A stretch of DNA of 64,000 bases from a virus: the IMG/VR virus record IMGVR_UViG_3300046387_001332; one strand, 5' to 3'. The notes under the pieces are model-generated. The model was not told where the DNA came from and did no database searches. It was given only the letters and a program-made list of their open reading frames with translations. A program made the translations under genes and the position numbers. This document shows positions 3,760-31,433 of this stretch, piece by piece; positions within the stretch are counted from its first letter, which is position 1, and each line of letters opens with the position of its first letter.

Positions 3760-4977
3760 TCAATTCTTTTTCCAAATCCAAATAGGTTCTGCAAAAGCAA
3801 CATCTTTCGTTTCTTCGGTAATTTCTTTGAGGTCTTCTGAGAAATATTCACTTTTGGCATTACCAGCACCACCTGAATTAAATCGTTTCGTCATTTCCAT
3901 TCCAATGCAACCAAGATATTCAAGTCTTTGGGATTTAATAAAGTCATTCATTGGATTTGTAATTTCAACATAATCGTTGATAGGAGCATTAAAAACATCT
4001 GCTATGTTTATTGCAAGAATACCATTCTTTTTTATTGTCGGAATTATTTTACCAAGTGTGGTGTGAAGAAATCTCTCGTTCCAATCATCTATCTTTTTAT
4101 ATCGCACCCACGATTGTGTATCATCTTCCGAATACTTTTCTGTATTAAAATATGGTGGACTTGTAAACACCGTATCAAAGTAATTTTCGTATTGCAAGTA
4201 ATCTACATCTTCAGCAGGACTTTCTATTAAGTCTGCTTTTCTGTTCTGTTCAAAAAAGGTAGAATACTTTTCGTAGAACTGAATTTGCTTTTGGTAATTA
4301 GGATGATTAAGTGTATTGGGATCAATGCCAACATAATGCTCTGTGGTTTCACCTGTGTAAAATCCTGCTAATCTATCACCCCACCCTGCACTAAAATCTA
4401 ATACTTTTTTGCTTTGAAAGTGATCGTAAAATGCTTTTGCTACTGCCGGTTTGAATTGTGATGCGACATACTTACGAAGAGTTGTAGCAACACGTAGAGT
4501 ATTAACATCAACTTGGTTAAGAACTTTATCAAGTGTCCAATAAGCACGAACGATTGTTTTAATTCCTTTAACCGTTTGCCAAGTTTTCCAACCACTTGGT
4601 GTTCTTGTCCAATCGACTTTCCAACGAGTTTCTACATGAAATGGATTAGAAGCATTGTTACCAGAATTGTTTCTTTTCAATAGAAACTGAGAGCCTTTAT
4701 AGTTTAAATGGTAATTACTTTTTCTTTCGTTACGAGGAAACCACTTTTTTTCTACAAGCACATCGTTGTGCTTTATTCCTTTTAACTTGTTTAAACTATC
4801 AAAAGTTTGTCTGTCTGTAATTTCAGGTAACGGAGCAGGATATGTGTGCAATACCTTTGCAAGTTCTTCTACAACATCTTCTTTTTCATACGTTTGCATG
4901 ATGTCTTTCCATTCTTCCTCTTCAATGAGGAGATATGGTTTCATGTTGTAGAACTTTTTAAAGTAGTTTTCTAACAT
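3760..4977 (-). CDS. Amino-group (N4-C/N6-A type) DNA methyltransferase
   Basis: SAM-binding LDFSAGWGDR followed by catalytic FTSPPYFN and EPIWIW. Confidence 0.8.
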   Translation of the reverse strand: MLENYFKKFYNMKPYLLIEEEEWKDIMQTYEKEDVVEELAKVLHTYPAPLPEITDRQTFDSLNKLKGIKHNDVLVEKKWFPRNERKSNYHLNYKGSQFLLKRNNSGNNASNPFHVETRWKVDWTRTPSGWKTWQTVKGIKTIVRAYWTLDKVLNQVDVNTLRVATTLRKYVASQFKPAVAKAFYDHFQSKKVLDFSAGWGDRLAGFYTGETTEHYVGIDPNTLNHPNYQKQIQFYEKYSTFFEQNRKADLIESPAEDVDYLQYENYFDTVFTSPPYFNTEKYSEDDTQSWVRYKKIDDWNERFLHTTLGKIIPTIKKNGILAINIADVFNAPINDYVEITNPMNDFIKSQRLEYLGCIGMEMTKRFNSGGAGNAKSEYFSEDLKEITEETKDVAFAEPIWIWKKN

Positions 4978-6688: not shown

Positions 6689-6774
6689 AAATATTATATT
6701 ATATCAAATGGAACAATCCGTCAACCTAAATTTATGTATTGTATTTTTTAACCGATAATGATATTATTTCCACA

Positions 6775-8215: not shown

Positions 8216-9139
8216 ATGAAGTCCGAAAATATTGTTTGTGAGGAGTGGAAAGGGTATCGTCCTAATATGCCTGTTCAAGTTGTTGGTGTACAAAACGGAA
8301 AGATTACATCCAACGGTAATGGGGTTGAAATATTTAAGAACCTAAAAGACGCACAGAAGAAGTATTCAGACCTTGATCCTGAAGAGAATACCAAACGATT
8401 TACTTGGGTAATGCGTGGTGAGATCAAAGGCAGAGACGCAGGAAGATTTGAAACTTGGCAAGCAGAAAGAATGTATTCAATGGAAGAACAAGTATTTCAA
8501 GATATAATGAAAGAAGCAAAATTTAATGCTCGTATTCTTCCTGCTAATCTAGAAGACCTTGAAATGAAAACTTTGATTGTTGCAATCGGAAGCACCGTTA
8601 CAGGAATGTTGGACAAAATTAAAAAGAATACAGGTTCTAATGCTAATCCAGTTAGTTTACAAGTTATTAAGGGTGGAGATGCTATAAAGTCTGCACTTAA
8701 AAGTCAAATGGATTTAAAAGGCAAAGAAGCACTTGTAGCGTTTTTCAAAGAAACAAACAAACATTTTGCAGGTAACGCACCTGCATTATCTAGTATAGTA
8801 AGGAAATATAAATTGAAATCTGATAAATATAGTGGTAAGGTATTTGCAGAACAAGAAACAAAATTACGTGAACTTGTTCGTGGTTATTTAAAAAATAAAC
8901 TGAATATGAACGAAGCAAAAAAAAGCAAAATGATTCCTATGGAAAAGTATGGGGCTGCGTTCATGGTTGATAACGGACATCTTATGTCGGTTGCTATGAA
9001 CCGTGATGGTAGTCTTGAAACGTTTGATGGTGATTTGGACTGGGGTGAAGTAACTGCTCCTGAATCTCAGAAGTTTCTTGATGACATCAATAAAAAGTTC
9101 AAGACGAAGTTTAAGATGGATGACTTCGCAGGAAGATAA
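8216..9139 (+). CDS. Hypothetical protein (possibly virion-associated)
   Basis: ATG 5 nt after ATATTTAT; about 307 aa with a mosaic appearance. Confidence 0.65.
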   Translation: MKSENIVCEEWKGYRPNMPVQVVGVQNGKITSNGNGVEIFKNLKDAQKKYSDLDPEENTKRFTWVMRGEIKGRDAGRFETWQAERMYSMEEQVFQDIMKEAKFNARILPANLEDLEMKTLIVAIGSTVTGMLDKIKKNTGSNANPVSLQVIKGGDAIKSALKSQMDLKGKEALVAFFKETNKHFAGNAPALSSIVRKYKLKSDKYSGKVFAEQETKLRELVRGYLKNKLNMNEAKKSKMIPMEKYGAAFMVDNGHLMSVAMNRDGSLETFDGDLDWGEVTAPESQKFLDDINKKFKTKFKMDDFAGR

Positions 9140-9468
9140 TGTTTAAACTAGGTGAATCTAATATTCACGGACACGGTTTAATTGCTACCGAGAATATAAA
9201 AGCAAATACTGATGTTGGTTTGAGTCACTCCGGAATTGGTTTAATAAATGAACGAGTGGTTGTTGGTGAAGCAACTGATATTGGTAACTTTCAAAATCAT
9301 AGCAATACAAATAATTGCGTTAATAAGATTGTCGGCAAAGATTTGCATATGTTTACTATCAACGATGTTAAATGTGGAGATGAACTTACAATTAACTTCT
9401 ACGAAAATACAGACATTTGCATCAACATAGAAAACTCAGAAAGTTGGAAGAAAAGTCAGTTTTTATAA
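9139..9468 (+). CDS. Minimal SET-domain protein (lysine methyltransferase-like)
   Basis: SNIHGHGLIAT, NFQNHS and DVKCGDELTINFY correspond to SET motifs I, III and IV. Confidence 0.85.
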   Translation: MFKLGESNIHGHGLIATENIKANTDVGLSHSGIGLINERVVVGEATDIGNFQNHSNTNNCVNKIVGKDLHMFTINDVKCGDELTINFYENTDICINIENSESWKKSQFL

Positions 9469-9842: not shown

Positions 9843-11399
9843 ATGGAGTCACACAAATGCACAAAAAAAGAATGTAAATATCCTATAAGTTGCGAACACA
9901 ACGATTTGTGCATGGAGAATGAAATGCAAAAAAGTGTTTCTTCAAAGAAAATCAAAAAAACCTCAACTCAAAAAGTTGGGGTTATTTTGTGTCATGGTTT
10001 TTTATCAAAGCACGAACAAATGGTCCCTCTTAGCAATTTCATTTACGAAAATTTTAATTGGGAAACTCATCTTGTTGAGTTAAGTGGTCACGGATACGAT
10101 GCTGATAATATTACCAAGGTAACTTGGAATGATTGGGTTGATGATGTGAAAAACAAGTACAACAAAGTTTCCAAAGAATGTGATACAATTTACTTTATTG
10201 GATTTTCTCTTGGTGGTTGTGTTGGTGCTTATGTATCTACTTTAAAAAGTGTAAGATTTTCTGGAATGGTGTTAATCAATTGTCCATTTGGTGTTAAGAA
10301 TGTATTTAATAAACTTTTACCAGGTGTTATGATTTACAATAAAATTTGTAAGAAACTCAATCTTCAAAAAATAATGCTTGAGTGTATTTCTAATGATAGT
10401 GAAATGCCAGAGTTAAACCAACCATTAATTGATTTGTCCGCAACAAATGAACTTCGTAAAATGTCTAACGTTTCTAAAACTATATTAGATAGAATATTAT
10501 GTCCTGTGTTTCAAATACAAGAATACAACGATCCAACTGTTTTTTATAGTAGTGGTGTTCGTGCATTTAAGAAGATTGCATCATCCTATAAGAAATTATT
10601 TACCACAAAATTAAATACACATCTTACGATTTACGACAAAGGATTAGAGTGTAGTGTGTTTTGTAAAATAAAACAATTTCTGACGGAAATGGAGAAAAAT
10701 AAATTTATTAATATTGCTCATCGTGGAGCAAGTGGTACTTGTACAGAAAATACACTTTCTGCATTTGAAAAAGCAATTGAGTTTAATTGTGATATGATTG
10801 AATTTGATGTTCAGCATATTAATCACAACTTCTGCGTGTTTCATGATTATACGGCAGAAAGAATGTTTGGGTTAGATAAAAAGATGAGTGATTTGTCATC
10901 GGATGAATTTGATAAACTTATTTATGCTAATTGTGAACGCATACCCACTTTACAACAAGCACTTGATTGTATAAATGGTAGGTGTGGTGTGAATATTGAA
11001 GTTAAAGATAGTAGCATTGCAACTAATATTGTGTCAGTTGTAAGAGATTATCAAAAAAAGAAACAATGGCAGAATGTTGATATTGTATTGAGTTCTTTTA
11101 GTTGTGCAACCGTCAATTTAATTAGAAGAACCGGTGATGATATCAAAGTATCCCAATTATTCCACGAAGGTAACGTCACACTACAAGACATAAAGAATTT
11201 TAGAAAAGACTACTTTGAAAAAAATATATATTCTGTAAATTTATATATAGAAGATATTACACAACCCATTGTTGAGTATTGTAATGAAAATAACATGAAA
11301 ATATATGTATATACCGTAAATGAACTTCGTGCTATAAGATATTTGCGTGAATTGGGTGTGGATGGTGTATTTACAGATTATCCCGAAAGAATACAATAA
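9843..11399 (+). CDS. Alpha/beta-hydrolase (esterase/lysophospholipase-like) fused to glycerophosphodiester phosphodiesterase
   Basis: HGF oxyanion motif, LSGHG, GFSLGG nucleophile, DPTV and His; C-terminal IAHRGASG..ENTLSAF, IEFDV, HD, NIEVK, YTVN, GVDGVFTDYP. Confidence 0.88.
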   Translation: MESHKCTKKECKYPISCEHNDLCMENEMQKSVSSKKIKKTSTQKVGVILCHGFLSKHEQMVPLSNFIYENFNWETHLVELSGHGYDADNITKVTWNDWVDDVKNKYNKVSKECDTIYFIGFSLGGCVGAYVSTLKSVRFSGMVLINCPFGVKNVFNKLLPGVMIYNKICKKLNLQKIMLECISNDSEMPELNQPLIDLSATNELRKMSNVSKTILDRILCPVFQIQEYNDPTVFYSSGVRAFKKIASSYKKLFTTKLNTHLTIYDKGLECSVFCKIKQFLTEMEKNKFINIAHRGASGTCTENTLSAFEKAIEFNCDMIEFDVQHINHNFCVFHDYTAERMFGLDKKMSDLSSDEFDKLIYANCERIPTLQQALDCINGRCGVNIEVKDSSIATNIVSVVRDYQKKKQWQNVDIVLSSFSCATVNLIRRTGDDIKVSQLFHEGNVTLQDIKNFRKDYFEKNIYSVNLYIEDITQPIVEYCNENNMKIYVYTVNELRAIRYLRELGVDGVFTDYPERIQ

Positions 11400-11425: not shown

Positions 11426-13054
11426 GTGGATATTGTAGAACATTATTTGAATAAGTCTTTGATTACATCTATTGAGTATGAAGATGTTTTGTGTGAACTT
11501 GCTTTACACGATTTGTTTAAACGTGACAACAAGCAAAGGTTCATTGACAAAGTTGATAGCAACGAAGTTCTTGATGATAAAAATAATCCTCTTAAAATAA
11601 AAAGTGGTACTACTGCTTTGTGGAAAGATATGAAGAAGCAACTTTTATCAGCAACAGACAAAGATGGAATTGCCGATTGGGGTGGTCGTGGTGACACTAA
11701 AATAAAACAACTATTTGGTGTTCCTATTAGTAAAATAGGTAAATCACAAAATGATATGAGTGGTGGTGCGAGTAGTGGTAATCCAAGTGGAGAAGATTGG
11801 GAGGCAATGATTGCTATTGGTCTTGCTACTATTGAAAAGAAAGACCCATCAAAAGAAGTTCCCGATGAGTGGTCACGAATAGAAAGAAAGGGGTTTTGGG
11901 ATAGTGAATTTAATCGTGACATTGCAGAAAAGATTGCAAGTGCATTTAAGAAAAACGGATATGCACCCATTTCACAAACTGGTAGTGGAAAGGGTGGTGC
12001 GGGGGTATCAAGTGAATGGGGAGAGATATTTAAAGAATACGGAAGTGGTAGTATGAACAAAACTCCAAAGACTGATATCAAGGGTGGTTCAAAGAAAATT
12101 TCATTAAAGAAAGCAGGTGGTTCTCAAGCAATGAGTGCCAAGCAAGCAGAAGCAGCTTCTACATTCGGAGCAGCTGTTAGTATGTATGGTAAAAATTATC
12201 CGAGTAGTGTAAATAAAATCTTAGATTCATTTAAAAGTTCAATTCTTGATTTATCTGAAAGTGGTTATCGTGGTAGTATATCTGCTCTTGAAAAAGACAT
12301 CAAAGCAAGTGAAGGTGATCCAAAGAAAATGAAGAAACTTAAACCCGTGGTTGATAATTTAAAGCAAGCAAGAGATGATGGTAAGTTTATTACATCTGAA
12401 ATGAATCGTTTGTTTTTAAGTGATTCAAAATTCAAAGACTTATTTGTATTTGAGGCAGCTACCGGTTCTGTTAAGTTTGGAGATTCATCGGAAAGTCGTG
12501 CTGATACTATGGTGGAAATTGATACTGATAGTGGTAAAATTACATCACAATACAAAATGAATTCTCCAAGTGATATCTCTTCGTTGGCAAGTCAATACAA
12601 GTTTTATTTGTCATTCAAAACAAGTGGTAATAGCACTCCTTATATGGCACTCCGAGGAAATATGGAACAAGACCCAAAGAAGGTTACTGCGTGGATGAAG
12701 AAGCAGGTTGTAGAAAATAAAAACTTTTCAACGATATGTCCAACATTTTCTACTATTATTCAAGAAGGTTTTAAACAAGACGATTTTGGAAAAAGATTAT
12801 TAACCGAATCTAGTTATCAAAATCTCAATGAATGGCAATTACTTAAAAAAGTTCGTGACGGAATAACATCTGTTAGCAACAAAGTAAAGGACCGTTTTGT
12901 TAAAATATGGAATTGGATTTCTGAACGAGTTTCTGTTGCGTTTAATTGGTTAAAGAAACAAGGAGCAAAAGCACTTGTTTATCTTCAAAAGTTTTTTGGA
13001 GTGAAACTTGACAAATGTGGAATAAATGGAAAAATAGAACTTTTCTCTGCTTAA
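11426..13054 (+). CDS. Hypothetical protein, possible PD-(D/E)XK nuclease-like domain
   Basis: 542 aa; EDWEAMI...TPKTDI...KISLKK pattern; GTG start 4 nt after ATATTTAT. Confidence 0.5.
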   Translation: MDIVEHYLNKSLITSIEYEDVLCELALHDLFKRDNKQRFIDKVDSNEVLDDKNNPLKIKSGTTALWKDMKKQLLSATDKDGIADWGGRGDTKIKQLFGVPISKIGKSQNDMSGGASSGNPSGEDWEAMIAIGLATIEKKDPSKEVPDEWSRIERKGFWDSEFNRDIAEKIASAFKKNGYAPISQTGSGKGGAGVSSEWGEIFKEYGSGSMNKTPKTDIKGGSKKISLKKAGGSQAMSAKQAEAASTFGAAVSMYGKNYPSSVNKILDSFKSSILDLSESGYRGSISALEKDIKASEGDPKKMKKLKPVVDNLKQARDDGKFITSEMNRLFLSDSKFKDLFVFEAATGSVKFGDSSESRADTMVEIDTDSGKITSQYKMNSPSDISSLASQYKFYLSFKTSGNSTPYMALRGNMEQDPKKVTAWMKKQVVENKNFSTICPTFSTIIQEGFKQDDFGKRLLTESSYQNLNEWQLLKKVRDGITSVSNKVKDRFVKIWNWISERVSVAFNWLKKQGAKALVYLQKFFGVKLDKCGINGKIELFSA

Positions 13055-14644
13055 TTACTTCTTGTAAAACACAAAGATAGGTTCGTACTTTTGCAACTCT
13101 CCGTTTATCTTGCAACAATTCTTAACCGTTTCTGCTTTAACACCACGCATTGTTGTCATAAGCATTTTAAGAGTTTCTACATACTCAAGTCCGTATTCCG
13201 CAAGAATATCACGACTATCTTTTTCTAATGGCATAAATCCATCTCCGTCTGCAATGTCTGCAATATTCCAAAGTAAGTATCTATCGTTCTTCAAATACTC
13301 GGCAGCCGTTTTCAAAGTAGGACGAAGAAAGTTGTCTCTCCAATCTTCGTACTCTGGAAACTTTTTGAAACTCTGAGATTCATCTGCTGAATATTGCTCA
13401 CGATTAAAATAAGGTGGACTCGTAAAAACCAAATCAAGTTTACCTTTGTATTTTTGGAAACTTGGATTCTTGTGAATTTCTTCACTTCCGTTCTGATAAA
13501 CATCATAAGTGTTACGATGACCAAAGAACGGATTACCTCCGTTTGTTTTATCATTAAAGAAGTCAGCAAGATATTCATAACGACTTTGATTTAGTTCGTC
13601 TATATAATTGTCTGTATTTGGATCAGTTCCTATATAATGAATTTGACGATCATGTACTGACATAGCACCTAGAATACGACCACCCCAACCAGAACTTGGG
13701 TCATATATATGGAGATTGCTTTTATCTTGAATGTGGTCTGTGTATTTCTGATATATATATTTTGCAGTCAACGGAGGAAAGTTTACTGCTGGTTGACTAA
13801 GACCCAACTTAAATGCTTCCATTGCTGACGGAAAGATTCTTGAGTTCTTGTTATAGTAACGGATGCTGAATTTGAATTGTACTTCCTTTTCATCTTCAAT
13901 AACGACATCATTTATATTTTCTATATCGTCACCGAAGTTTGCAGTTCTTTCTAAATTTCTAATGTTGTTTATTTCAAGCAAACCTTCTTTGTGTAATTTT
14001 CTTATTTGCTTTGCCGTAAGCATCAAACTATTTTGTTCATACGAATCAAAGTTTTTTTCTGTGAACAACTCAATAATCCAAAAGTCGTTATCTGGATGAA
14101 GATGCTTTTCTTTGACGAAGTTGCGAATCCACTCTTCTCCGTTTTGTGTTGGACACGGAACATCGAAGTCATTCTTGCCGATAGTTTTTCCGTGAGCATA
14201 AAACGAATCCCTACGAACAGTTCGTCTCATACAAGTATGAAAACTTTCTCGTTTCTCTGGATTAGCAAAACAATCATATACACTCCAAGATGTATGCTTA
14301 CTAGAACCTATTTTGGTTTTAAGCATCGTTGGAAAAAACTGATCAACTACGGTTGCGAACTTGTTAAAGTTTTTGATGATAGTATCAGTTCCATCCATTT
14401 CATCTGTATGCTGAAACTTGTAAACATCGTAACCAGGTAGCTTATTAAAGTTTGCTATAATATCTTTTTCGTTTTTACCTGTTCTTGGTGGAAGACCTTC
14501 ATTGTCCCAAGTGTCCACGATATAAGTTCTAAGTTCATCAATCCACTGTTCCAATTCTGTACCATTCTTTTGCAATAGTTCGTGGAATGTAATATTAACC
14601 TTACACTCTGTTAAATTATTCTTTTCGTAAAAGTATTTTTTCAT
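13055..14644 (-). CDS. Amino-group DNA methyltransferase-fold protein
   Basis: YDPSSGWGGR SAM-binding motif, FTSPPYFN, YEPIFVF; ATG at 14644 overlaps the upstream stop (ATGA). Confidence 0.8.
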   Translation of the reverse strand: MKKYFYEKNNLTECKVNITFHELLQKNGTELEQWIDELRTYIVDTWDNEGLPPRTGKNEKDIIANFNKLPGYDVYKFQHTDEMDGTDTIIKNFNKFATVVDQFFPTMLKTKIGSSKHTSWSVYDCFANPEKRESFHTCMRRTVRRDSFYAHGKTIGKNDFDVPCPTQNGEEWIRNFVKEKHLHPDNDFWIIELFTEKNFDSYEQNSLMLTAKQIRKLHKEGLLEINNIRNLERTANFGDDIENINDVVIEDEKEVQFKFSIRYYNKNSRIFPSAMEAFKLGLSQPAVNFPPLTAKYIYQKYTDHIQDKSNLHIYDPSSGWGGRILGAMSVHDRQIHYIGTDPNTDNYIDELNQSRYEYLADFFNDKTNGGNPFFGHRNTYDVYQNGSEEIHKNPSFQKYKGKLDLVFTSPPYFNREQYSADESQSFKKFPEYEDWRDNFLRPTLKTAAEYLKNDRYLLWNIADIADGDGFMPLEKDSRDILAEYGLEYVETLKMLMTTMRGVKAETVKNCCKINGELQKYEPIFVFYKK

Positions 14645-15498
14645 TGTCTCCAAAAGTGTGATGCACAAGCACCACCAAGATTATAGAATAGTACATCTCC
14701 GTCTAATTTGCAACCATTTTCTGTTAACCAACTCCACGCCTTTTTGTCCCAATTACCATTACAAGGAAACGGAGTTTCACACCAATCCATATCATCAAAA
14801 AAGTCGTGAGGTGTTTCGTGTATTTGAGTTTGATTACGATCATACACATTCCACTTCTTTAACATATTTGCAATAGATGACTTACTTGCAGTTGTGATCA
14901 AGTGAGCATACTTTTTATCTTTTTCTGACTGAACTCCAAATGTTTCAAAGTTCATAAATCCTTGTAGAATACCAGAAGGTGTAACACCACTTCCTGCATT
15001 TATCACCAAATGCTTAAAGTTTTTTTTCTGCATTATGCTTTGGGTGCGTTCTCTAAAATAAGTTATATACTCGGAGTGATTAAATGCGTAAGGCATCATT
15101 TGGTATTTTTCTTTTTCTGCAAGAATTCCTACACTACTTATTACGATGCTGAGAATATTTGGTTTCATCGGAACAAGTTCTGCTCCTAAACTTTCTATTT
15201 TTTCAAGTGCTTTTTTTGGATAGTCTTTGGTGTCTGGATAAGCAATCTTGATCTTAAACCCCAACTCTTTTCCGATATATGCTAATGCCCATCCACTATA
15301 ACTTACACGAACTGATAAATGTATAATGGGTTTGTCTTTAGATAACTCACCACTTTCAAGAACTCTGCGAATACCTTCCATTTTTGCCCACGGAGGTAAA
15401 TCCATATTTCCGTTTAGTAAATCGTCACGTTTTACATAAACTTTTTTTTCTCCACACAAATGTTCTTCAAGTGGAGTATCAAAATTAAAGGAGAGCAT
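14641..15498 (-). CDS. Fold-type II (TrpB/PALP-like) PLP-dependent enzyme
   Basis: TPLEE, VYVKRDDL, Schiff-base Lys in WAKMEG, SYSGWALA, phosphate loop AGSGVT. Confidence 0.8.
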   Translation of the reverse strand: MLSFNFDTPLEEHLCGEKKVYVKRDDLLNGNMDLPPWAKMEGIRRVLESGELSKDKPIIHLSVRVSYSGWALAYIGKELGFKIKIAYPDTKDYPKKALEKIESLGAELVPMKPNILSIVISSVGILAEKEKYQMMPYAFNHSEYITYFRERTQSIMQKKNFKHLVINAGSGVTPSGILQGFMNFETFGVQSEKDKKYAHLITTASKSSIANMLKKWNVYDRNQTQIHETPHDFFDDMDWCETPFPCNGNWDKKAWSWLTENGCKLDGDVLFYNLGGACASHFWRQ

Positions 15499-16690
15499 CT
15501 AAATGTTTTTGTTCACATTCAATATCCATTATTACGTGGAAACGATAATTCTCTGAATTGTTTACAACCCAATGAGGTTTTCTTTTGTCCATATAATAAT
15601 ATTCTCCCGTCTTTAAACGAAAGTCTTCTGTTTCACCATCAAGTCCAACTTGGGTGAATATACACTCTTCGTCAACTTGAATAGGAAAATGAATTCTTAA
15701 CGAACGACCAAGTTTTGGTCCATTCTTTGTTTGGTAATCCCAACTATCGTGACCAATATCGGTGTGTCTTTGAATCACTCCATTTTTTGGTTCTACTCTT
15801 GTGATAACCAACCAAGTACATTTTTCTACTGATGTAATTTCATTTACAATCTTTGCAAGTTTAGGAAGTTTCTCAAGAATTGTATAATCAACTTCACTGT
15901 TAGGGTTGATCGGCACAACTTCAATTGTGTACCAAGTTTTTTCGGGTCCTCCGTAGTTTCCATTAATTCCATCGTAACTCCAAGGATTAACTGCTTCTTT
16001 GTAGTCTTTAATTTCTTGAACAAGTTCTGCACATTCTTTTTTGTTGATAGAACTCAACTTCATTTTCTGAATCTTAATGTCTTCATACTTTGAAACACCC
16101 GGTTGTTTCAACTCACCACTATACCAAATACCACGAACCTCAGAACCAACCGCGGTTACTTTACTGCTTAACCAAGTTGCGTTAATTGCATTACACAAAT
16201 CTTTATCTTGTTGAAGTTCCATATTAACATCTGTGAAAAACAAATCACATCTTGTATCAAACAAATCGTTTTCTAGTTCTCGTTTGCTTTCAATGTCTTT
16301 AATTAAATCATCCATATACCCATCTGCATATGCGAATCTTGTAATTTGCAAATCACCTGTCTTAATATGAGCAACTACATCTTCGGCAACATCTTTGATT
16401 CCACGACCAGATTTTGCTTCCGCACAAATATAACTCCAAACAATCTCATCGTTTTCTTTCTTGAAAAACAATCTACCTTTTTGATCTGCTTCCCAAAGGT
16501 TCTTCCAGTTTACTTTCTTGAACGGATCGAGGTTAGGTTCTTTGCAAGCAATTGGTTGATTTTTCCATTGTGGCGGAACATCATATTGCTGATAGAACTT
16601 TGCGTGTTCTCTGAATGAATCTTTTACTTCATCTGAAATGTCATCTTTGACTTTGACCTTTTTTGTTTTCTTTTCTTTTACTGAAACCAT
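15485..16690 (-). CDS. Aspartyl/asparaginyl beta-hydroxylase-like 2OG-Fe(II) oxygenase with unknown N-terminal domain
   Basis: IQRHTD (HxD), LRIHFPI, GEYYYMD, PHWVVN, RFHVIMD. Confidence 0.8.
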
Positions 16691-17487
16691 TTGTTTTCTT
16701 GCCTTTCTAAAATTGCATTATTCACTTTATTCTCTAAACAATTCTCTATAATTTTTTTTAAATTTTCGTGATCGTTTTTTTCTCCAAGGAAATTCCACGA
16801 TGTGTGATTGTAATACTTGACTGAATCTGTTTCAAGAAGTTCTTCGCGTTTAGTCGTACCAAGTGTATCAATGTGAGCAGACTTAATATTACCACCTAAA
16901 AGTGCAGAAAGCAATCCTTCGTTGTCGTGACATTCTGCTCTTGAAATAGAAACAAAGTTTATCCAGCAACATTCTTCAAATAGTTTTTCGTTGAACATAT
17001 TTTTGGTGGAATCATTCAACGGAACGGCTGCAACTATGTTTCTTGTATCCGCATTTGCCATTACTTCTCTGATTAACTTCATATCAGTTTTTGAATCTAC
17101 AACTACAAATGGATTATCACATATTTCTTGAACTTTCTTGGATATTGGTCCATTACCAAATATGATAACACGACCTTCTTCTAATTTGTCTTTAATCCAA
17201 TAAGCACATCCGTTTGTATTAGGACTTGTTGTCACTACACCAACATTGTGCTTTTTACACAACTTTAGATTTACCGAATCTACTCCATGACCTCTGTGAA
17301 CTACCCACTCAAGGTTAGGATACCGATCAAGTGTAGTTTTTCCTACTTTGCTAAATTTGGTTGATATGACCTTAATTTCTTTCGCAGGAATTCCATCTGC
17401 TTTTTGCATTGCACCGAGAATGTGTGCATTTGGAATAAACTTCTCTATATCAACAAGATCGGATTTATCTTTTATTAAGGTATTCAT
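16678..17487 (-). CDS. D-isomer-specific 2-hydroxyacid dehydrogenase-like protein (shortened)
   Basis: [49 protein letters not shown]. Confidence 0.75.
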
Positions 17488-17541
17488 TTTCGTATACTAT
17501 ACTAAACGAATACGCACCAAATATCAAGTATATAATATAAT

Positions 17542-19188
17542 TTATGCTAACTCGGTAACTTTGATTCTCGCAGATACATGACCAAGACTTCTATTTAGAT
17601 ATTCCATTGGAACTTTGTTTTCTACAAACAACTCGTTAAAGTATTGATCAATAGTATCTTGTTCTTTTTTAAGATAATCTGTATGGCATCCTTGTTGAAA
17701 TGTTTTTTTGGGTCTCCAGAGCAACTCATCGGAAATCTCTCCTTCAAATGCTTTTCGCAAAACATATTTCATTATGTTTCCTTTGCCATCTGCTTCATCT
17801 CTGTATCTGGTTGGAATTCTCAAACCAAAATCAATGACTTCTTTATTAAGAAACGGAGTTCTTAATTCTACCTTACCACCATACATCATTGCTTTGTTTG
17901 TTCTAATAAGATTGTTCTTGTGAAGATTGTTTATGAGGTTAACTCGTTTTTGATGCCAGGCAAGTGGATCAGGCCAGCAAAATCTTTTAACATCTCCATA
18001 ACTAGCAAATATTTCATCTGCTCCTTCTCCACCAAATACCACTTTGTATCCTTTGTCTCGGATTTCCCAAGATAAAAATAATTGAGCAACTGCTGGAGAT
18101 ACTTGTGTCCATTTGTGGGTTTCTGATGCCCATATGCTTTCTTTTAAATTATTCTGAATATCTTCTTTACTTACATTAACTTCGTGCAATCTAACACCCA
18201 ATTCTTTTGATGCTATTTTAGCATAATACAAATCATCTTTCAAAGTTTGCTTACGATTAGATGTCACATTCACAACAAATGCTTCAATGTTTGGGTTTTT
18301 CTTTTTAAGTAGGTATGTGATTATGGTGCTGTCTATACCACCGCTTAAAATTGTACAAATTGGAGTATCACTTATTAGTTCATCATCAACTGCTTTTTCC
18401 AACCGTTTTCTAAATTCAGATGCGTAGTAATCAATTCCTTTATCTTCTTTCTCAAATAATTTTAAGTCTGTTTCTGATCGTGTATATAAAGTTGGATTCT
18501 CTGGATTAAACTCTGGTTTGAAATCGTTCCATCTTTTAATCTCACAATTTGTTACTCCGATTAAATTTTCGGAAACCGTTACAATTGTTCCAGGTTCTAC
18601 TACTTTTATTTTTTCTTCTTCACCCCTTGGTGCTTTGCGATTTCTATCTACATTAAAAAACTTCAGTTCTTTGTTTGCTGATTGTAATCCTTTAACTTCA
18701 CTTGAAAAAACAATCTTTTCGTTTTCAAATGCATAATATAACGGAAGTCTTCCGATAAAGTCTCTTCCTAATGTTAACTGATTTCGTTCTACATCATAAA
18801 AAGCAAAACAAAACATTCCATCAAGATTTTTCATTGCTTCTAAAATATTATCACGATTATCAATCAAATAATAAAGTAACAACTCTGAATCACTTCGTTC
18901 AGTCTTGAAATTGTATTTCTTTCTGAGTTTGTTGTTAAACTTTCTAAAAAATGGTTTCCACATTTCTCCGTTGAAGGCCAGCACAAATTTTTCATCTTCA
19001 GAAATAAGTGGTTGATTTGCTGACTCTGATAAATCTTGTATAGACAAACGATTGTGACTCATATAAAAATCATTCTTCTCAAAATGAAATATAACATTGC
19101 CATCTGTTCCCCGATGCATAATTGAAGCAAGACCGTTTTTTACGTCTTGTATATTGTTGAAAGAGTTACCCCCTAATATTCCACACAT
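17542..19188 (-). CDS. asnB: Asparagine synthetase B-like glutamine amidotransferase
   Basis: N-terminal MCGI, HRG, RLSIQD, FNGE, DSE, RD; SGGIDS PP-loop, GEGADE, RTPFL. Confidence 0.9.
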   Translation of the reverse strand: MCGILGGNSFNNIQDVKNGLASIMHRGTDGNVIFHFEKNDFYMSHNRLSIQDLSESANQPLISEDEKFVLAFNGEMWKPFFRKFNNKLRKKYNFKTERSDSELLLYYLIDNRDNILEAMKNLDGMFCFAFYDVERNQLTLGRDFIGRLPLYYAFENEKIVFSSEVKGLQSANKELKFFNVDRNRKAPRGEEEKIKVVEPGTIVTVSENLIGVTNCEIKRWNDFKPEFNPENPTLYTRSETDLKLFEKEDKGIDYYASEFRKRLEKAVDDELISDTPICTILSGGIDSTIITYLLKKKNPNIEAFVVNVTSNRKQTLKDDLYYAKIASKELGVRLHEVNVSKEDIQNNLKESIWASETHKWTQVSPAVAQLFLSWEIRDKGYKVVFGGEGADEIFASYGDVKRFCWPDPLAWHQKRVNLINNLHKNNLIRTNKAMMYGGKVELRTPFLNKEVIDFGLRIPTRYRDEADGKGNIMKYVLRKAFEGEISDELLWRPKKTFQQGCHTDYLKKEQDTIDQYFNELFVENKVPMEYLNRSLGHVSARIKVTELA

Positions 19189-25969: not shown

Positions 25970-27597
25970 TTAAATAACAATTTAAAACTTATCTTTAAGT
26001 ACATTAAATTTTCTTGATTGTTCCTTTTTTCTAAAAAATTATAAATTTTGGTGTAATAATCTTTACTATTTTTTAATATCGATTCTCCTGATATATAATA
26101 GTTTGAAGAATCTGAGTAGGATATGTATTTGTGCAAATGCCTATCTATTAACTTTACATCATTATTTACCAATTGATACTTTATTGTTTTTGTTTTAACG
26201 AATAGTGCAATCCATTGTTTGAAATTTAGGTTTGAACGAGTTATGTGCTTATTATCTTCCTTTATGTGTAGATCATGTCTCAATACAATATCTTTATTAA
26301 ACTGACTTATCATATCTTTTTTGTTTTCAAAATTTTCATGTGACATTTTATCATTCACGAAAAAGAAATTACTTTTTATGTTATCATAATTGTTAATAAT
26401 GAATCTAATATAATATTGTTCGTATGTAAGTTTATTAGCATTATCAAGTTCATTTATGATTGTTGCATTTTCTTTGTAAAACTCGGAAAATTTAACATCT
26501 GATTTTAATTTTACACACACAAAGTGGTGTCCTGATATGTTGGGGGTTTCCTTTTTAAATACCTGCATATTCACTTTGGTTAGATATTCAAAGGGTAACT
26601 CTTTGTTTTTAGTTTTGGAGTATTTAGTAATTAGTGATTTGTATTTATTTTTAAATTGTTCATGGTTTCTTGAATTTAGTAAAAAGTCATCTTCATTCCG
26701 TGATTCAAAATACTTTCTAATTGCACAACTTATATCCGCACGATTTAAAAGTAATTCACCTGACTTTGAATACGAGGTGTCTTTTTCAGGAATAAAACCC
26801 AATTTATCTGGAATTATGTCACGGGTATAATATTTTCTATTCACTTGAGTTCCGTGATATTTTACAAGAATTGTATTGTCTGCACATCCAATTGTTTTTG
26901 TTTTATTGTTTTCGTTATACCATTCTATGTAATTTATTTGCATATTTTTATTTGAACCAAAAATTCGTTCTTGGTTATTTTTTATTTTGTCAATAAAGTC
27001 ATCACTTCGTGTATAACCAAGCAGATTTAAATAGTCACCCCCACCACATATGCATTTATCATATAAAGGTGTTTTGATATTTAGTATGTCCTTGTTATAC
27101 ACATAACCGTATCCAGGTTCACCAATTCTATTGAGTGTATTTTTTATATCTACAATTCCCTGTTTGTAGTAAGATGTCATTGATTTTACGCAAATTGTTT
27201 TTCCGTTGCTTTTTTCTTTGTTAATTGTATTTGCAACTTGTACAATATCATGTGTTCTTAATTCATTTTTTATTTTTTGGATCCAGTTATCGTCCTGAAA
27301 TATAATATCCGAATCTAACCAACCTACATATTTGTACTCTTTCATTAGTTTTGTGATACCAATGTTTAGAAGATTTTCTTTTTTCCAAAAAAATGATTCG
27401 TTTTTAAAAGACACAACATCTCCTACATTTTTGTTAATTCTAAGTTTACACTTTCGTGTGTATGATTCTACAAAAATAATTTTCACACCAGGGTGTGTTT
27501 GTATTTTATCGTAGAATAATAAAAAATTTAAATATTTTGATAAATAATTAAGTGGATTGAAATAACAAACCACAAATGCTATGTCTGATGTATTCAT
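25966..27597 (-). CDS. GT-A glycosyltransferase with C-terminal DUF3431-like domain
   Basis: WKKENLLN, WLDSDI, GGGD, YHG; C-terminal YIRFIINNYDNI. Confidence 0.65.
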   Translation of the reverse strand: MNTSDIAFVVCYFNPLNYLSKYLNFLLFYDKIQTHPGVKIIFVESYTRKCKLRINKNVGDVVSFKNESFFWKKENLLNIGITKLMKEYKYVGWLDSDIIFQDDNWIQKIKNELRTHDIVQVANTINKEKSNGKTICVKSMTSYYKQGIVDIKNTLNRIGEPGYGYVYNKDILNIKTPLYDKCICGGGDYLNLLGYTRSDDFIDKIKNNQERIFGSNKNMQINYIEWYNENNKTKTIGCADNTILVKYHGTQVNRKYYTRDIIPDKLGFIPEKDTSYSKSGELLLNRADISCAIRKYFESRNEDDFLLNSRNHEQFKNKYKSLITKYSKTKNKELPFEYLTKVNMQVFKKETPNISGHHFVCVKLKSDVKFSEFYKENATIINELDNANKLTYEQYYIRFIINNYDNIKSNFFFVNDKMSHENFENKKDMISQFNKDIVLRHDLHIKEDNKHITRSNLNFKQWIALFVKTKTIKYQLVNNDVKLIDRHLHKYISYSDSSNYYISGESILKNSKDYYTKIYNFLEKRNNQENLMYLKISFKLLFK

Positions 27598-28220
27598 AAC
27601 TTTTCATAGTTTTGATCGTAGTTTCTGTGATATCTTGCGTTGGATTCTTCTTGAGTCTTGATGTCCTTGGTATGTATTATTTCATGAAATGTATTTGGTT
27701 CAATGATGTCCATATAATGATGTCCTGTAATAATCTCATGAACTGCTCGGGTCCATCTTATTCGTTTATCATTTTTAAAAAGTCTGGTTTGAAAGTCTGG
27801 ATAATTGATTCTATTTAGGTGATCTCTTTTCCAGTTCCATTTTTTAAGATGCAATTCTGTTATACCATGTACATAATTTACTCTAGGTATTTTTATTAAA
27901 TCTTTATTTTGTTTTTTAACTATTATGTCATGTGCATTTTTGATAAGAGGTTCGGTTGGTAATTCATCTGCATCAAACTGAAAAATGAAATCTTTTTCAC
28001 ACATATCATTTAGTTTATTTTTATGCACACCGTAGTTTCCATTGAGTCTATGTTGTTTGTGTTTATGGTTTTGTATAATTTCAATTGTTTCTTCGTTTTC
28101 AGAAAAATCATCTAGTATTAGAAGTTCATCATTTTCACGTTTAAGTTCTAATATCCTATCTATTAATTTACGAAGTGAGTCAGTTTCGTTGTGTGTGCAT
28201 ATTGCAAAACTAATGTTCAT
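27594..28220 (-). CDS. GT2-family glycosyltransferase
   Basis: ICTHNE, LDDFS, FDADE, PDFQTRLF, VHE. Confidence 0.85.
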   Translation of the reverse strand: MNISFAICTHNETDSLRKLIDRILELKRENDELLILDDFSENEETIEIIQNHKHKQHRLNGNYGVHKNKLNDMCEKDFIFQFDADELPTEPLIKNAHDIIVKKQNKDLIKIPRVNYVHGITELHLKKWNWKRDHLNRINYPDFQTRLFKNDKRIRWTRAVHEIITGHHYMDIIEPNTFHEIIHTKDIKTQEESNARYHRNYDQNYEKL

Positions 28221-28969
28221 GCTTTTCCATTCCCATACATATTTAATTCATTATCTGCGTACTTTTTTAGTTTATTTTTGTTATCATATTTGTCCGCAAA
28301 GTCTTCAATTTCTTTATATTCTTTCAGAAAGTTTCTAACCGTTCCGAATCTGTCTTTTATAATTCTGTTAAATTCCTTAATGTTTAATTTGCTGAGTTTC
28401 ATACCAATTGCAGTTTCTAATATTAGTCGTTCCTGATTTATATCTCTAATTATATCCTCATCAGAAATAAGTGTGTCTTTGTTTTCATAGTCACTAAATA
28501 GAGTTCTGAAATCTAGATATGTGACTTTTACGTTTGACATATCGTTTATTATATATGTTCGGTAGCAATCAAACTTTGTTAATTTTTTTACATGGGTTTC
28601 GTAAAAAGGTCGTGGACGATTAATTAGTTGGTTCACCGGTGCAACAACATCATATCTTCTTTTTATCAATGAAATTGTATCTTTTACCAATATCCTACGT
28701 AGAAAATCTTTAAAACTACCCCAAGGTATAAATTCAAGTGAGAGACCATGTAATTTACTTCTACCAAGTCCTCCTCGGAATGTATTTAATGCAAATACTA
28801 ATCTAAGATATTTTCTTCTTTTTTTTCTACCACCAGATGTTGCGTCATCACTTGTATACATGAATGAAACAATTTGTCCTGGTTTTATTTTAGAACGAGG
28901 AATGCCAACAGAACCACCAACACACTTTTGCAAATAATTTTTGTAATAACTCACTTGAATATATATCAA
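28217..28969 (-). CDS. Hypothetical protein, possibly T4 gp2-like DNA end protector
   Basis: PGQIVSFMY...LVFAL...LHGLSLEFIP...CYRTY resembles the gp2 pattern. Confidence 0.4.
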   Translation of the reverse strand: MIYIQVSYYKNYLQKCVGGSVGIPRSKIKPGQIVSFMYTSDDATSGGRKKRRKYLRLVFALNTFRGGLGRSKLHGLSLEFIPWGSFKDFLRRILVKDTISLIKRRYDVVAPVNQLINRPRPFYETHVKKLTKFDCYRTYIINDMSNVKVTYLDFRTLFSDYENKDTLISDEDIIRDINQERLILETAIGMKLSKLNIKEFNRIIKDRFGTVRNFLKEYKEIEDFADKYDNKNKLKKYADNELNMYGNGKA

Positions 28970-28986
28970 GTGGCAAATGTATTATG

Positions 28987-30183
28987 TTAAATATATTGAC
29001 TGAACAAAGTTTCGTATGACACAGAGATAGAGTCTATATCAAATTTAGTTTTGTTAATTTCTTTTAGTTTCACTGCCTTTGTTTTGTACTTATCGTAGTT
29101 TTGATATACTTCTCGTATCTTTTGAGAAGATACGTCTTTGTCAACTACCATCCATTTTGCCTTTGTACTAAATAAAGATGTTTCTTTAGTAATGTTAGTT
29201 AACTTACCCGGTAGTAAAATAGAATTTTTTTTGTCTATAATGTCAAGGTGTCCTGACCATTTTGTTGCAAGAACTGGTAGTCCACATAAAGTTGCTTCTA
29301 GGATAGGTCTACCGAATCCTTCTCCTTTTGTGTGAGAAATAAATGCTTTAATTTTTGGATGAGTATACACGGAGTGTATTTCTGATTCACTTATATCCCC
29401 ATGTAAAAGATAAATATTCGGTCTACTCTGAGATGGATGTTCTTCAATTATACTTTTTATTTTGTTGGATATTTCAAAATAATCACTAATACTAAAATTT
29501 GATCCAGATGTCTTTAATACCAATGCAGGTTTGTCGTCTGTGTTATTAAATGCTTTTATAAAAGATTCTATGAGTGACTCAATATTTTTTCTACCTCCGT
29601 CATCAGACTCACTTGTGATCCATTGTCCAACTGAAAGAAAACAAAAATCTTCTTTGATTTCATTTAACTCATTGATACTACTACTTGATTCAGAATCTTT
29701 ATAAAATTCAAATGACGCACTTTCTGCGATGACGGAAATTTCGGTAGTCTTGTCTATTTCATTTTCTTTGTACGAGTTTTCAAAAGTTTCTTTTGTAAAA
29801 TTGGACGGAACTATTACATGATCCATTTGATTTAATCCGTTTAGCATACTAGATGGTACATAGTCAACTTCAACACCAGCAGTAATTCCAATATTTATAT
29901 CTGAACCTACCTTCTTGAATTCGGTGGGGAGTCCGAGTTGGATATATACATCGCATCCTGTGTAATGATCTTTTTCGTTTACAAAATGTGGTTTATACTT
30001 TTCACTTAGTTCTTTGTTTAGTCCTGTTTGTGGATTGCTACCCCAGGGTGTAATTGCAAATTTAAGTTCATGTGATGAAAACTTGTTGTACAATACAGAT
30101 GCAATTTCACGGGCATGATCTCCATAACCACTTCTTGATAATAATGGAGATACATATAAAATTCGTTTTTTATCTTTGCTCAT
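28987..30183 (-). CDS. GT4-family (GT-B) glycosyltransferase
   Basis: SGYG, RKN, EGFGRPILEA, WSGHLD. Confidence 0.88.
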   Translation of the reverse strand: MSKDKKRILYVSPLLSRSGYGDHAREIASVLYNKFSSHELKFAITPWGSNPQTGLNKELSEKYKPHFVNEKDHYTGCDVYIQLGLPTEFKKVGSDINIGITAGVEVDYVPSSMLNGLNQMDHVIVPSNFTKETFENSYKENEIDKTTEISVIAESASFEFYKDSESSSSINELNEIKEDFCFLSVGQWITSESDDGGRKNIESLIESFIKAFNNTDDKPALVLKTSGSNFSISDYFEISNKIKSIIEEHPSQSRPNIYLLHGDISESEIHSVYTHPKIKAFISHTKGEGFGRPILEATLCGLPVLATKWSGHLDIIDKKNSILLPGKLTNITKETSLFSTKAKWMVVDKDVSSQKIREVYQNYDKYKTKAVKLKEINKTKFDIDSISVSYETLFSQYI

Positions 30184-31433
30184 ATCTTTTCAAATCTATA
30201 CTTAGGAGAAGGTTTAAATGAATCTATGCTTTTATTAATGCCACCCTTGATTCCGTTAACCATTTGTTCCACAGAAAAATTGCTTTCAACATATTCCCTT
30301 CCAAGTTTACCCTTCTCGTTAAGTTTGTCCTTATCCTGATATAGAGTTATCATAGCAGATGCAAGTGCATCGGAAGATATATAATCTTCATATAAGTAAT
30401 TAGTAGTTCCGTCACCAGTCAAATGTCTAAGTGTGGGTTCTACACCAATGCCCCATGTATTATTGTTGTCAATTTGATCAAGCAATCCACCTGTGCGATT
30501 ACATATTATAGGTGTTTCACACGCAAGTGATTCTAATGTTGCAAGTCCAAATCCTTCGTTACATGAAGCATTTACAGTAACACTTGCAGTATTATACATT
30601 TGAGATAAAATTTCTGGACTAACCTTGGTTGTAGAAAATAATATATTACTATCATTAAATAAGTTATCACACATCTTAATAATGTCGTGTTTATTTTGAC
30701 CGACTTGATTTGTGTGAATCATCATCAATATGTGTTTAGACTCTGACTTGGGGAGGGTGTTACACATTTTATCAAATGCTTCCATGACAACAGGTAGTTG
30801 CTTTCTTCTCATGTTTACATTATTACATAAAAAACAGAACTCACACCCATCACCTAAAAGATTACTTCGTGACTCTACTGAAAATTTATCTTCCTGTTTT
30901 TTGAATGTATTCAAGTCTACTCCATGTGGAACATAGTCACATGAAACATTTCCACCTGTAACTTCTTGAACAATCTGATGTGTTAATTTAGAAATACACC
31001 CAATCCAGTCACAACTATAATAAATACCTTTATTAAAAAACGGAGTAGGGTAATTGTCCCACACATGATAATAGCAGATTGGAATAGTTCTGCGAACTTT
31101 ATTTTCAATTGCATATAACCACTTATAGAACCTTGGGTCCGACATATGTAGAATAGCATCAATCTTTTCTGCTTTACAAATTCCCTCTACAAGTGACTCA
31201 TTACCGTAATTATTATTGCAATACAGTCTTACATAACTACCAGATGTATTGTACATTTGGTCTAATGACTTACTAACATCTACAACTTTTCCATTTTCTG
31301 GATGATTTGTTTTTGATGCCAATTGTATCCAATTGAAGTCAGACAATGTGTTGACTATTATGTCTTTGCATATATTTGCTACACCACTTGGGTATCTTAT
31401 GTCATCTCCAATTAACAATACATTTGGTTTCAT
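30180..31433 (-). CDS. GT4-family (GT-B) glycosyltransferase
   Basis: VPHGVD, RRK, EGFGLATLES, TGGLLDQ. Confidence 0.88.
   Translation of the reverse strand: MKPNVLLIGDDIRYPSGVANICKDIIVNTLSDFNWIQLASKTNHPENGKVVDVSKSLDQMYNTSGSYVRLYCNNNYGNESLVEGICKAEKIDAILHMSDPRFYKWLYAIENKVRRTIPICYYHVWDNYPTPFFNKGIYYSCDWIGCISKLTHQIVQEVTGGNVSCDYVPHGVDLNTFKKQEDKFSVESRSNLLGDGCEFCFLCNNVNMRRKQLPVVMEAFDKMCNTLPKSESKHILMMIHTNQVGQNKHDIIKMCDNLFNDSNILFSTTKVSPEILSQMYNTASVTVNASCNEGFGLATLESLACETPIICNRTGGLLDQIDNNNTWGIGVEPTLRHLTGDGTTNYLYEDYISSDALASAMITLYQDKDKLNEKGKLGREYVESNFSVEQMVNGIKGGINKSIDSFKPSPKYRFEKI

Follow-up and report, generated by a model that had tools for sequence, protein, structure and literature searches.

A candidate methylase-linked DNA hypermodification module with a gp52-like enzyme in an uncultured tailed phage

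The 64,000-nt stretch of DNA analyzed here (IMG/VR record IMGVR_UViG_3300046387_001332; the window) derives from an uncultured tailed phage with a GC content of ~ 33%, and searches of the window cover this part of the phage genome only. Its genes include those for a family B DNA polymerase, dUTPase, PhoH and baseplate wedge proteins, and the IMG/VR contigs related to it reach 177 kb and come from aquatic metagenomes. We focused on five genes on the minus strand that encode, from the upstream end, an AsnB-type amidotransferase (AsnB), a 2-hydroxyacid dehydrogenase-family enzyme (DH), a GNAT-fold domain joined to a 2-oxoglutarate (2OG)/Fe(II) oxygenase, a pyridoxal 5'-phosphate (PLP) enzyme and an SPPY methylase-fold protein (MT) (Table 1). 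An earlier reading made from the letters alone (the sequence-only reading) had proposed that this cassette is an operon for an undescribed type of DNA hypermodification. All five co-directional open reading frames (ORFs) lie at 13055-19188, where that reading had placed them, Pfam agrees with its enzyme labels, and the overlaps it reported were recovered, namely 13 nt (DH/oxygenase), 14 nt (oxygenase/PLP) and 4 nt (PLP/MT, with an ATG start for MT). The mechanically called MT ORF (13055-14668) starts at a TTG at 14668, giving a 28-nt overlap; the ATG at 14644 was preferred because homologues begin at that residue. The gap between AsnB and DH is 54 nt, and AsnB is separated from the upstream epimerase gene by 120 nt. 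In a promoter and terminator scan, promoter-like sites were rarer than in shuffled sequences and a convincing operon boundary was not found. Catalytic residues are intact in all five proteins. The homologues at NCBI are all named hypothetical.

Table 1. Location and domain assignment of the cassette genes and of related genes in the window
Feature	Coordinates	Strand	Size	Domains and matches
AsnB-type glutamine-dependent amidotransferase (AsnB)	17542..19188	-	548 aa	Pfam Asn_synthase + GATase_6/7, E 1e-51; phrog_16728
Short D-2-hydroxyacid dehydrogenase-family enzyme (DH)	16678..17487	-	269 aa	Pfam 2-Hacid_dh, 2-Hacid_dh_C
GNAT-2OG oxygenase	15485..16690	-		GNAT-fold domain (~ 22-195) + 2OG/Fe(II) oxygenase (~ 200-401); Pfam Asp_Arg_Hydrox, residues 269-391
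Fold-type-II PLP enzyme, M6 gp52 family	14641..15498	-	285 aa	Schiff-base Lys39; Pfam PALP 35.9 bits (cut-off 35)
SPPY methylase-fold protein (MT)	13055..14644	-	529 aa (from ATG 14644)	N-domain of ~ 290 aa + class I S-adenosylmethionine (SAM)-dependent amino-alkyltransferase domain
MT paralogue	3760..4977	-	405 aa	~ 31% identical to the MT C-domain; Pfam N6_N4_Mtase 26.5 bits; phrog_12517, phrog_498
GT2 and two GT4 glycosyltransferase genes	27594..31433	-		Pfam Glycos_transf_2, Glycos_transf_1; GT4s weakly match PF20706 'GT4 in conflict systems'

The enzymes of the cassette

The match of the PLP enzyme to phrog_7093 spans positions 5-278 of 279 (E 9e-24), and tblastn against 50,697 phage records gave matches only in M6/YuA-like Pseudomonas, Bordetella, Rhizobium, Sphaerotilus and Stenotrophomonas phages, the one in M6 having an E of 1e-12 with 26% identity at 94% coverage. 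When M6 gp52 was used as the phmmer query against the ORFs of the relatives, matches reached E 2e-24. The matched M6 ORF lies between an unannotated (gp51-like) ORF and a radical SAM gene, a small ORF follows at the position of gp54, and a thymidylate-synthase homologue is nearby; it belongs to the gp51-gp54 cluster of Lee et al. (PMC8989533), who showed that purified gp52 decarboxylates C-alpha-glycinyl-thymine in DNA and proposed K36 as the Schiff-base lysine. K39 of the window enzyme is invariant and falls in the same alignment column as gp52 K36, G171 in the glycine-rich phosphate loop (GSGV) is also invariant, and the C-terminal motif PFPCN..WD.KAW..LFWN.GG is common to both proteins, while the best metabolic PALP match in the PDB was marginal (E 0.055). 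Judged by these alignments, the window PLP enzyme is a full-length homologue of M6 gp52.

MT scored 24.3 bits against Pfam N6_N4_Mtase (PF01555), under the cut-off of 26.7, and aligned only to profile positions 2-59, the motif IV region. Its motif I (DPSxGWGGR, ~ residue 323) stands ~ 95 residues ahead of motif IV (SPPY, 417-420), and MT is therefore not a member of the permuted PF01555 beta class. Across 64 sequences, S417-P-P-Y420, D323 and G327 were invariant or nearly so, and an invariant Arg directly follows the glycine loop. Using a structure model with a predicted local distance difference test (pLDDT) score of 92.5, VIA aligned the catalytic domain with the tRNA N2-methylguanosine (m2G) methylases Trm11, TrmN and Trm14 at Z 15-16, then with METTL5 and PrmC, all of them N-alkylating enzymes with a (D/N)PP(Y/F) motif (match range Z 13-16). 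The best matches among the BFVD predicted viral structures carried automatic annotations as N4-cytosine or DNA methylases. Foldseek against the PDB returned generic class I methylases at low template modelling (TM) scores and nothing closer; VIA-align was more informative. A PDB sequence search with MT was empty, and for the N-terminal domain (~ 290 aa) Atlas look-up and structure matching gave nothing. MT shares with the (D/N/S)PPY amino-methyltransferases (N6-methyladenine and N4-methylcytosine enzymes, Trm11/TrmN/Trm14, METTL5 and PrmC) the class I Rossmann fold, motifs I and IV (SPPY) and an acidic residue in motif II, and differs from them in the additional conserved but unmatched N-domain, the Arg after the glycine loop, the sub-cut-off Pfam score and its linkage or fusion to PLP enzymes. 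The family is large, with 3,694 cluster representatives at 50% identity in an exhaustive search and 2,248 matches in a word-indexed search.

A separate observation concerns the gene next to MT. A 542-aa gene on the plus strand (11426-13054) stands tail to tail with MT, ends exactly at the MT end, and accompanies MT in close relatives at 31-98% identity. It had no Pfam, PHROG or NCBIfam match and Atlas gave viral hypotheticals; the nearest named Atlas clusters were restriction endonucleases (HaeIII, MspI) at sub-threshold scores of 0.79-0.81. The protein may be a nuclease partner of the modification.

The oxygenase scored 35.5 bits against the Asp/Asn beta-hydroxylase family (PF05118; cut-off 22.6), and H309-x-D311, H373 and R383 (RHxD...H...R) were invariant in 18 homologues. 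In the structure model (pLDDT 81.6), the C-terminal domain is a double-stranded beta-helix that VIA aligned with proline 3-/4-hydroxylases (Z 14.7-15.4), a nucleoside-antibiotic hydroxylase (Z 14.8) and AspH (Z 13.5); sequence search of the PDB gave marginal matches only. The sequence-only reading was right to call the protein a 2OG oxygenase but missed a second, N-terminal domain, since residues 22-195 align with GNAT acetyltransferases at Z 10.7-12.4. By analogy with Mom of phage Mu, this GNAT-fold domain is a second candidate for the enzyme that installs a group on the base. Conservation of the GNAT-2OG oxygenase (L075:8185-9351 and L076:6803-7969) is unusually high, with 64-80% identity in phages that have the other cassette genes at 35-45% identity.

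AsnB begins with MCGI, which supplies the nucleophile Cys2, and has the PP-loop SGGIDS. It passed the asparagine-synthase equivalog TIGR01536 (278.9 bits; cut-off 267.1), scored 281 against PRK09431, under the cut-off of 499, and has E. coli AsnB (1ct9, E 2e-47) as its closest solved relative. With tblastn against the phage records, AsnB had no match in any cyanophage record and a CmoY-type match was absent; its relation to the DNA-modifying enzyme CmoY is at the level of the family only. In DH, the GxGxxG motif, R183, D207 and H228 were invariant across six phage homologues, and the PDB gave weak matches to glyoxylate reductase and phosphoglycerate dehydrogenase.

Linkage of MT to the PLP gene and to the replication module

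Among the longer matches of the exhaustive MT search we identified fusions of MT with a PALP domain, in the order MT then PALP in P0165 (829 aa) and P0253 (816 aa) and PALP then MT in P0189 (796 aa). The fused PALP parts align with the window PLP enzyme from the TP.EE..KRDD start through the LFW..G end, and in P0165 the MT part shares 40% identity with the full-length window MT. An element with an integrase gene harbours P0165 next to a ribosomal protein gene, and P0189 lies in an integrative element with an adjacent integrase and two flanking genes for ParB_N domains, which are often found with DNA methylases (PMC12783734). That the two are fused in either order argues well for a single substrate of MT and the PLP enzyme. 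A search for longer, fused relatives that started from the PLP enzyme found none, which is weak evidence, and complex prediction for MT and the PLP enzyme (score 0.00) was uninformative in either direction. The unfused genes are likewise associated: a gp52-like PLP gene was present in 26 of the 29 non-redundant loci having at least 7 kb upstream of MT, 13 of 37 gp52-like PLP genes directly adjoin an MT-fold gene, and the two are kept together through at least five different gene orders (Table 2).

Table 2. Order of cassette genes in the window and in related loci
Locus	Gene order
Window	AsnB, DH, oxygenase, PLP, MT
L071, L073, L079	MT, AsnB, additional 701-aa gene (seen in L071), DH, oxygenase, PLP
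L074	AsnB, DH, PLP, MT2, oxygenase, DNA polymerase
L067, L068	MT-like, x328, PLP, DH, AsnB, oxygenase (flanks in L067: DNA polymerase, RecA)
L016	DH, PLP, x239, MT
L049, L051, L053, L060	ThyA-like, AsnB, PLP, dUTPase
L002, L003, L005-L007, L012 (MT 92-95% identical)	Divergent oxygenase, 156-aa protein, divergent PLP-like protein, MT

Distant relatives, in which MT is 44-47% identical, have a common backbone that begins with a variable slot, dUTPase and a SAM-lyase-family gene, continues with an MT paralogue, DNA polymerase B, x239, MT, sometimes a third MT, and the clamp loader, and ends, often after MetK, with a PD-(D/E)XK nuclease and the glycosyltransferase genes GT4, GT4 and GT2. This backbone places MT among the core genes of the replication module. 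In the window, the MT paralogue (Table 1) sits in the replication module by the dUTPase and DNA polymerase genes, and its orthologues adjoin DNA polymerase in distant relatives. Close relatives (L004-L008) were also observed to have tandem MT-fold copies with ~ 70% identity.

The sister cassette of the closest relatives (last row of Table 2) resembles that of the window in its position after the epimerase gene and in its core of GNAT-oxygenase, PLP and MT genes. However, its oxygenase and PLP genes are only distantly related to those of the window (22-25% identity; pairwise 5e-4), and a 156-aa Cys-His-Asp thiol protein takes the place that DH and AsnB have in the window. The window cassette is an AsnB and dehydrogenase variant of a methylase-linked module. 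The sequence-only reading had named a neighbourhood that is not conserved in relatives as evidence that would tell against it, and what we found goes half that way: all four accessory genes are swapped or absent where MT is 90-95% identical, and the PLP gene is nevertheless kept in the 26 loci mentioned above.

Two observations on the replication modules of the relatives stand apart from the cassette. Distant relatives encode both a SAM-lyase-family protein (PF23780; L053:4307-4936) and a full SAM synthetase (MetK; L053:13777-14946) in the same replication module as their MT genes, which suggests that the phage manages its SAM supply. In two others (L014:968-4698 and L015:5481-9211), DNA polymerase B appears to be split in two ORFs by a 320-aa ORF of no known family, for which insertion of a mobile element or an arrangement resembling an intein may account.

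A possible hypermodification pathway and its alternatives

Our literature search turned up no account of a methylase-linked PLP module. Among known systems, the nearest is the thymidine hypermodification of M6 and ViI, of which the M6 pathway leads to 5-NedU (Lee et al. 2021, PMC8989533). The likeness covers the gp52-family PLP enzyme with the same lysine and C-terminal motif, the surroundings of phage replication and nucleotide-metabolism genes, and, as proposed below, an amino-acid-like group sculpted after its attachment to the base. For related metagenomic clusters, Lee et al. remarked on amidoligase and glutamine-amidotransferase genes whose presence was unexplained (PMC8989533). M6 differs in having a 5-hydroxymethyldeoxyuridine (5-hmdU) DNA kinase, an aGPT-Pplase/transferase and a radical SAM isomerase, whereas the window and its relatives are without these, and the constant partner of the PLP enzyme here is the SAM-binding SPPY methylase-fold enzyme. 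Searches with M6 gp51, gp53 and gp54 (phmmer, E 10) gave no match in the window and 80 loci, which agrees with the sequence-only reading that no 5-hmdU kinase or aGPT-Pplase gene is visible, and Pfam scans of window ORFs between 1 and 33 kb found no 5-hmdU kinase or aGPT-Pplase/amino-acid:DNA transferase.

In the CmoA/CmoX/CmoY system of Synechococcus phage S-B43 (PMC12783734), a methylase fold moves a non-methyl group to a DNA base and an AsnB homologue then acts on the carboxylate. CmoY is homologous to asparagine synthetase and attaches glycine to carboxymethylcytosine in DNA, and a sister cluster of CmoY that keeps its glutaminase domain, as does the window AsnB, is predicted to amidate carboxymethylcytosine (PMC12783734). 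CmoX, in contrast, is a C5-cytosine methylase with a catalytic Cys (SPPC) that needs the carboxy-SAM made by CmoA, whereas the window motif, SPPY, is of the amino-alkylation type. CmoA (TIGR00740) was absent from five related records, one of which is 100% complete, and from the scanned window ORFs; a C5-methylase (PF00145) was found in one of the five related records, ~ 14 kb from the cassette. ThyA (PF00303) had no match in three of four related records and weak matches of 26-27 bits upstream of AsnB-PLP in L049, L051, L053 and L060. On these family searches in related records, the CmoX route was rejected and a general 5-hydroxymethyl-pyrimidine route appears unlikely. With the kinase, transferase, radical SAM enzyme and CmoA all missing from the records searched, the cassette therefore presents the gp52 paradigm without its usual installer. 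One of the weakly matching genes (L053:695-1393; PF00303, 26.7 bits) is a 232-aa thymidylate-synthase-like gene directly upstream of AsnB-PLP-dUTPase and may encode a pyrimidine hydroxymethylase or hydroxylase for a different branch of the pathway. A third precedent is Mom of phage Mu, a GNAT that moves glycine from tRNA to adenine N6 in dsDNA (PMC13219725). The GNAT-fold domain is shared, and the module here would probably also target an exocyclic base amine with an amino-acid-derived group, but Mom acts alone, without PLP or SAM enzymes, and the window GNAT is fused to a 2OG oxygenase and likened to Mom by fold only. The precedents of CmoY (PMC12783734) and Mom (PMC13219725) make it plausible that the enzyme classes of the cassette act on DNA.

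Based on the gp52 homology, the PALP fusions and the replication-module context, we consider it probable that the module modifies DNA, and we put at about even the chance that the cassette represents one form of a methylase-linked module for the post-replicative hypermodification of DNA bases in a large family of uncultured marine T4-like phages. The same three lines of evidence strengthen the hypermodification part of the sequence-only reading; they do not extend to its claims of a group larger than methyl and of a particular target base. In our view, installation of such a larger group by the MT-fold enzyme itself is a tentative suggestion and somewhat unlikely.

In the pathway that we propose, MT would bind SAM and alkylate a base of the phage DNA at an exocyclic amino group. 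A PLP enzyme requires a primary amine beside a carboxylate, and the most economical amino-acid handle would be the 3-amino-3-carboxypropyl part of SAM, because in the minimal systems, made up of MT and PLP enzyme (with small genes of no assigned function), SAM is the sole amino-acid-bearing molecule that MT certainly binds. The gp52-family enzyme would then make a Schiff base at the alpha-amine of the tethered side chain and decarboxylate it or, alternatively, carry out a PLP-dependent elimination after hydroxylation that would give a 2-oxo group. Among the additional enzymes, the GNAT-2OG oxygenase would hydroxylate the side chain, DH would interconvert the 2-oxo and 2-hydroxy groups, and AsnB would convert a carboxylate to a carboxamide. 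Hydroxylation, PLP elimination, reduction by DH and amidation by AsnB would be a chemically coherent order for these enzymes, although the order is a guess. In its most specific form, the proposal makes the SPPY MT the first DNA aminocarboxypropyl (or aminopropyl) transferase acting on the exocyclic amine of A, C or G, with swappable PLP enzyme, GNAT-oxygenase, DH, AsnB and possibly glycosyltransferases diversifying the handle into combinatorial decorations in marine T4-like phages; we regard this form as speculative and hold it to be rather unlikely as stated.

Several points weigh against this interpretation. The pathway is read wholly from sequence, and this includes its substrate (DNA), the group transferred, the base targeted and the succession of steps. 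The SAM motifs of MT are ordinary, its closest solved folds are RNA methylases, the computed features do not separate methyl from aminocarboxypropyl transfer, and MT could simply be a methylase. As many as four or five MT paralogues occur per genome fragment, as would be seen for ordinary multi-specificity DNA methylases. The PLP gene was missing from the 115-kb record of a close relative (L009; incomplete), which has MT, and from a 54-kb record (L015; incomplete) with MT-fold ORFs at four places, and the oxygenase was present without MT or PLP on two fragments (32 and 53 kb; incomplete records). Phages with an MT 90-95% identical to that of the window either have other genes in place of AsnB, DH and oxygenase or lack them, and the cassette is co-oriented with an upstream 12-kb nucleotide-sugar/glycosyltransferase island. 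The negative searches for a 5-hmdU kinase, an amino-acid:DNA transferase, a radical SAM enzyme and CmoA count in the same direction, as does the finding of a ThyA-like gene in a few relatives only.

One alternative takes MT as an ordinary orphan DNA N-methylase with an anti-restriction role and the other four proteins as metabolic or glycan-tailoring enzymes that act on free amino acids, 2-oxo acids or nucleotide sugars to serve the neighbouring glycan island, and whose genes stand close to MT through a shared hypervariable insertion site. AsnB-type enzymes amidate uronic acids in polysaccharide pathways, and the cassette lies between MT and the nucleotide-sugar/glycosyltransferase island, which includes a UDP-glucose dehydrogenase gene. 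The accessory genes are swapped among near-identical phages, with the island directly adjoining MT through its epimerase gene in L008 and L009; by fold, the oxygenase best matches free-proline hydroxylases, and several MT paralogues per genome resemble multi-specificity methylases. Nevertheless, five relatives (L067, L074, L016, L049 and L053) have the same genes amid DNA polymerase, dUTPase and RecA genes with no sugar genes nearby, the PLP enzyme is closer to gp52 (PHROG 7093) than to any metabolic PALP, and chance insertion poorly explains the MT-PALP fusions. We consider this alternative unlikely.

The island itself can be read in another way. Homologues of its GT4, GT4 and GT2 genes, 29-36% identical and in the same order, lie downstream of MT genes in the replication module of distant phages, and glycosyltransferase and sugar-nucleotide genes also occur in known DNA glycosylation clusters (PMC13326640). 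Given these precedents and a glycosyltransferase set that moves with MT, the island therefore does not decide the question; it may be part of the DNA-modification region instead of a surface glycan pathway. The GT2/GT4 set is a possible further tailoring step.

It is also unlikely, in our estimate, that the GNAT-fold domain installs the amino-acid handle in the manner of Mom, from aminoacyl-tRNA or acyl-CoA, with MT only N-methylating the base or the appended amine or amide and AsnB and the hydroxylase acting on a tethered Asp/Asn-like residue. The GNAT fold of residues 22-195 (Z up to 12.4) and the precedent of glycine transfer to adenine N6 in dsDNA (PMC13219725) fit such a scheme, as do an AsnB above the asparagine-synthase equivalog cut-off, an oxygenase in the Asp/Asn beta-hydroxylase Pfam family, and the ability of (D/N/S)PPY methylases such as PrmC to methylate amide nitrogens. 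It would, however, leave the PLP enzyme without a substrate in the MT-PALP fusions and in the many PLP-MT loci that lack the GNAT-oxygenase.

A far less probable explanation is that the PLP enzyme acts on the cofactor, either by decarboxylating SAM, after which MT would transfer an aminopropyl group as spermidine synthases do, or by destroying S-adenosylhomocysteine (SAH) or SAM against product inhibition or host methylases. The MT-PALP fusion also fits cofactor channelling, SAM and SAH bear the free alpha-amino acid that a PLP enzyme requires, and relatives have MetK and SAM-lyase-family genes in the same module. Against this, we know of no PLP-dependent SAM decarboxylase, and the oxygenase, DH and AsnB would be left without a role; moreover, gp52, the sole characterised member of the family, acts on a DNA-bound amino acid (PMC8989533).

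Similarly remote is a tRNA or rRNA target, since the MT gene is core to the replication module, between DNA polymerase and clamp loader, the fusion has ParB_N neighbours, the viral structural neighbours of MT are annotated as DNA methylases and the PLP homologue acts on DNA, even though the solved neighbours of MT are the tRNA m2G methylases Trm11, TrmN and Trm14 and the rRNA N6-methyladenosine methylase METTL5 (Z 13.7-15.9) and tRNA bears aminocarboxypropyl modifications. A small-molecule cycle of the beta-hydroxyaspartate type (hydroxylase, dehydratase, reductase) was also considered; it is chemically coherent but fails on the gp52 homology, the MT fusions and the replication-module context.

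To our knowledge, the known phage routes to amino-acid-like groups on DNA all start from a hydroxymethyl- or carboxymethyl-pyrimidine or use Mom. If the hypermodification reading is true, the pairing of a SAM-binding amino-alkyltransferase fold with a gp52-type PLP enzyme as the constant parts would represent a chemically new way to hypermodify DNA. As the MT family is large and MT is a core replication gene of abundant ocean phages, the modification could be common in marine viral DNA, with a bearing on restriction and CRISPR evasion, on sequencing bias in viromes and on new DNA-modifying enzymes for biotechnology. The swappable accessory genes provide a natural series of variants from which the chemistry might be deciphered. 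New in this analysis are the gp52 homology, the GNAT domain on the oxygenase, the place of MT in the replication core, the MT-PLP link and the replication-module context in relatives.

Other genes in the window

Four further genes of the window were recorded. Two lie within the replication module, namely an HNH endonuclease gene on the plus strand (6739-7383; Pfam HNH and HNH_5, E 1e-13) and a gene for a DUF4326 protein on the minus strand (2480-2839). A stand-alone 109-aa SET-domain protein (Pfam SET, E 5e-8) is encoded on the plus strand at 9139-9468, and a fusion of an alpha/beta hydrolase with a glycerophosphodiester phosphodiesterase (Pfam GDPD, E 1e-34) is encoded on the same strand at 9843-11399, between the replication genes and the cassette.

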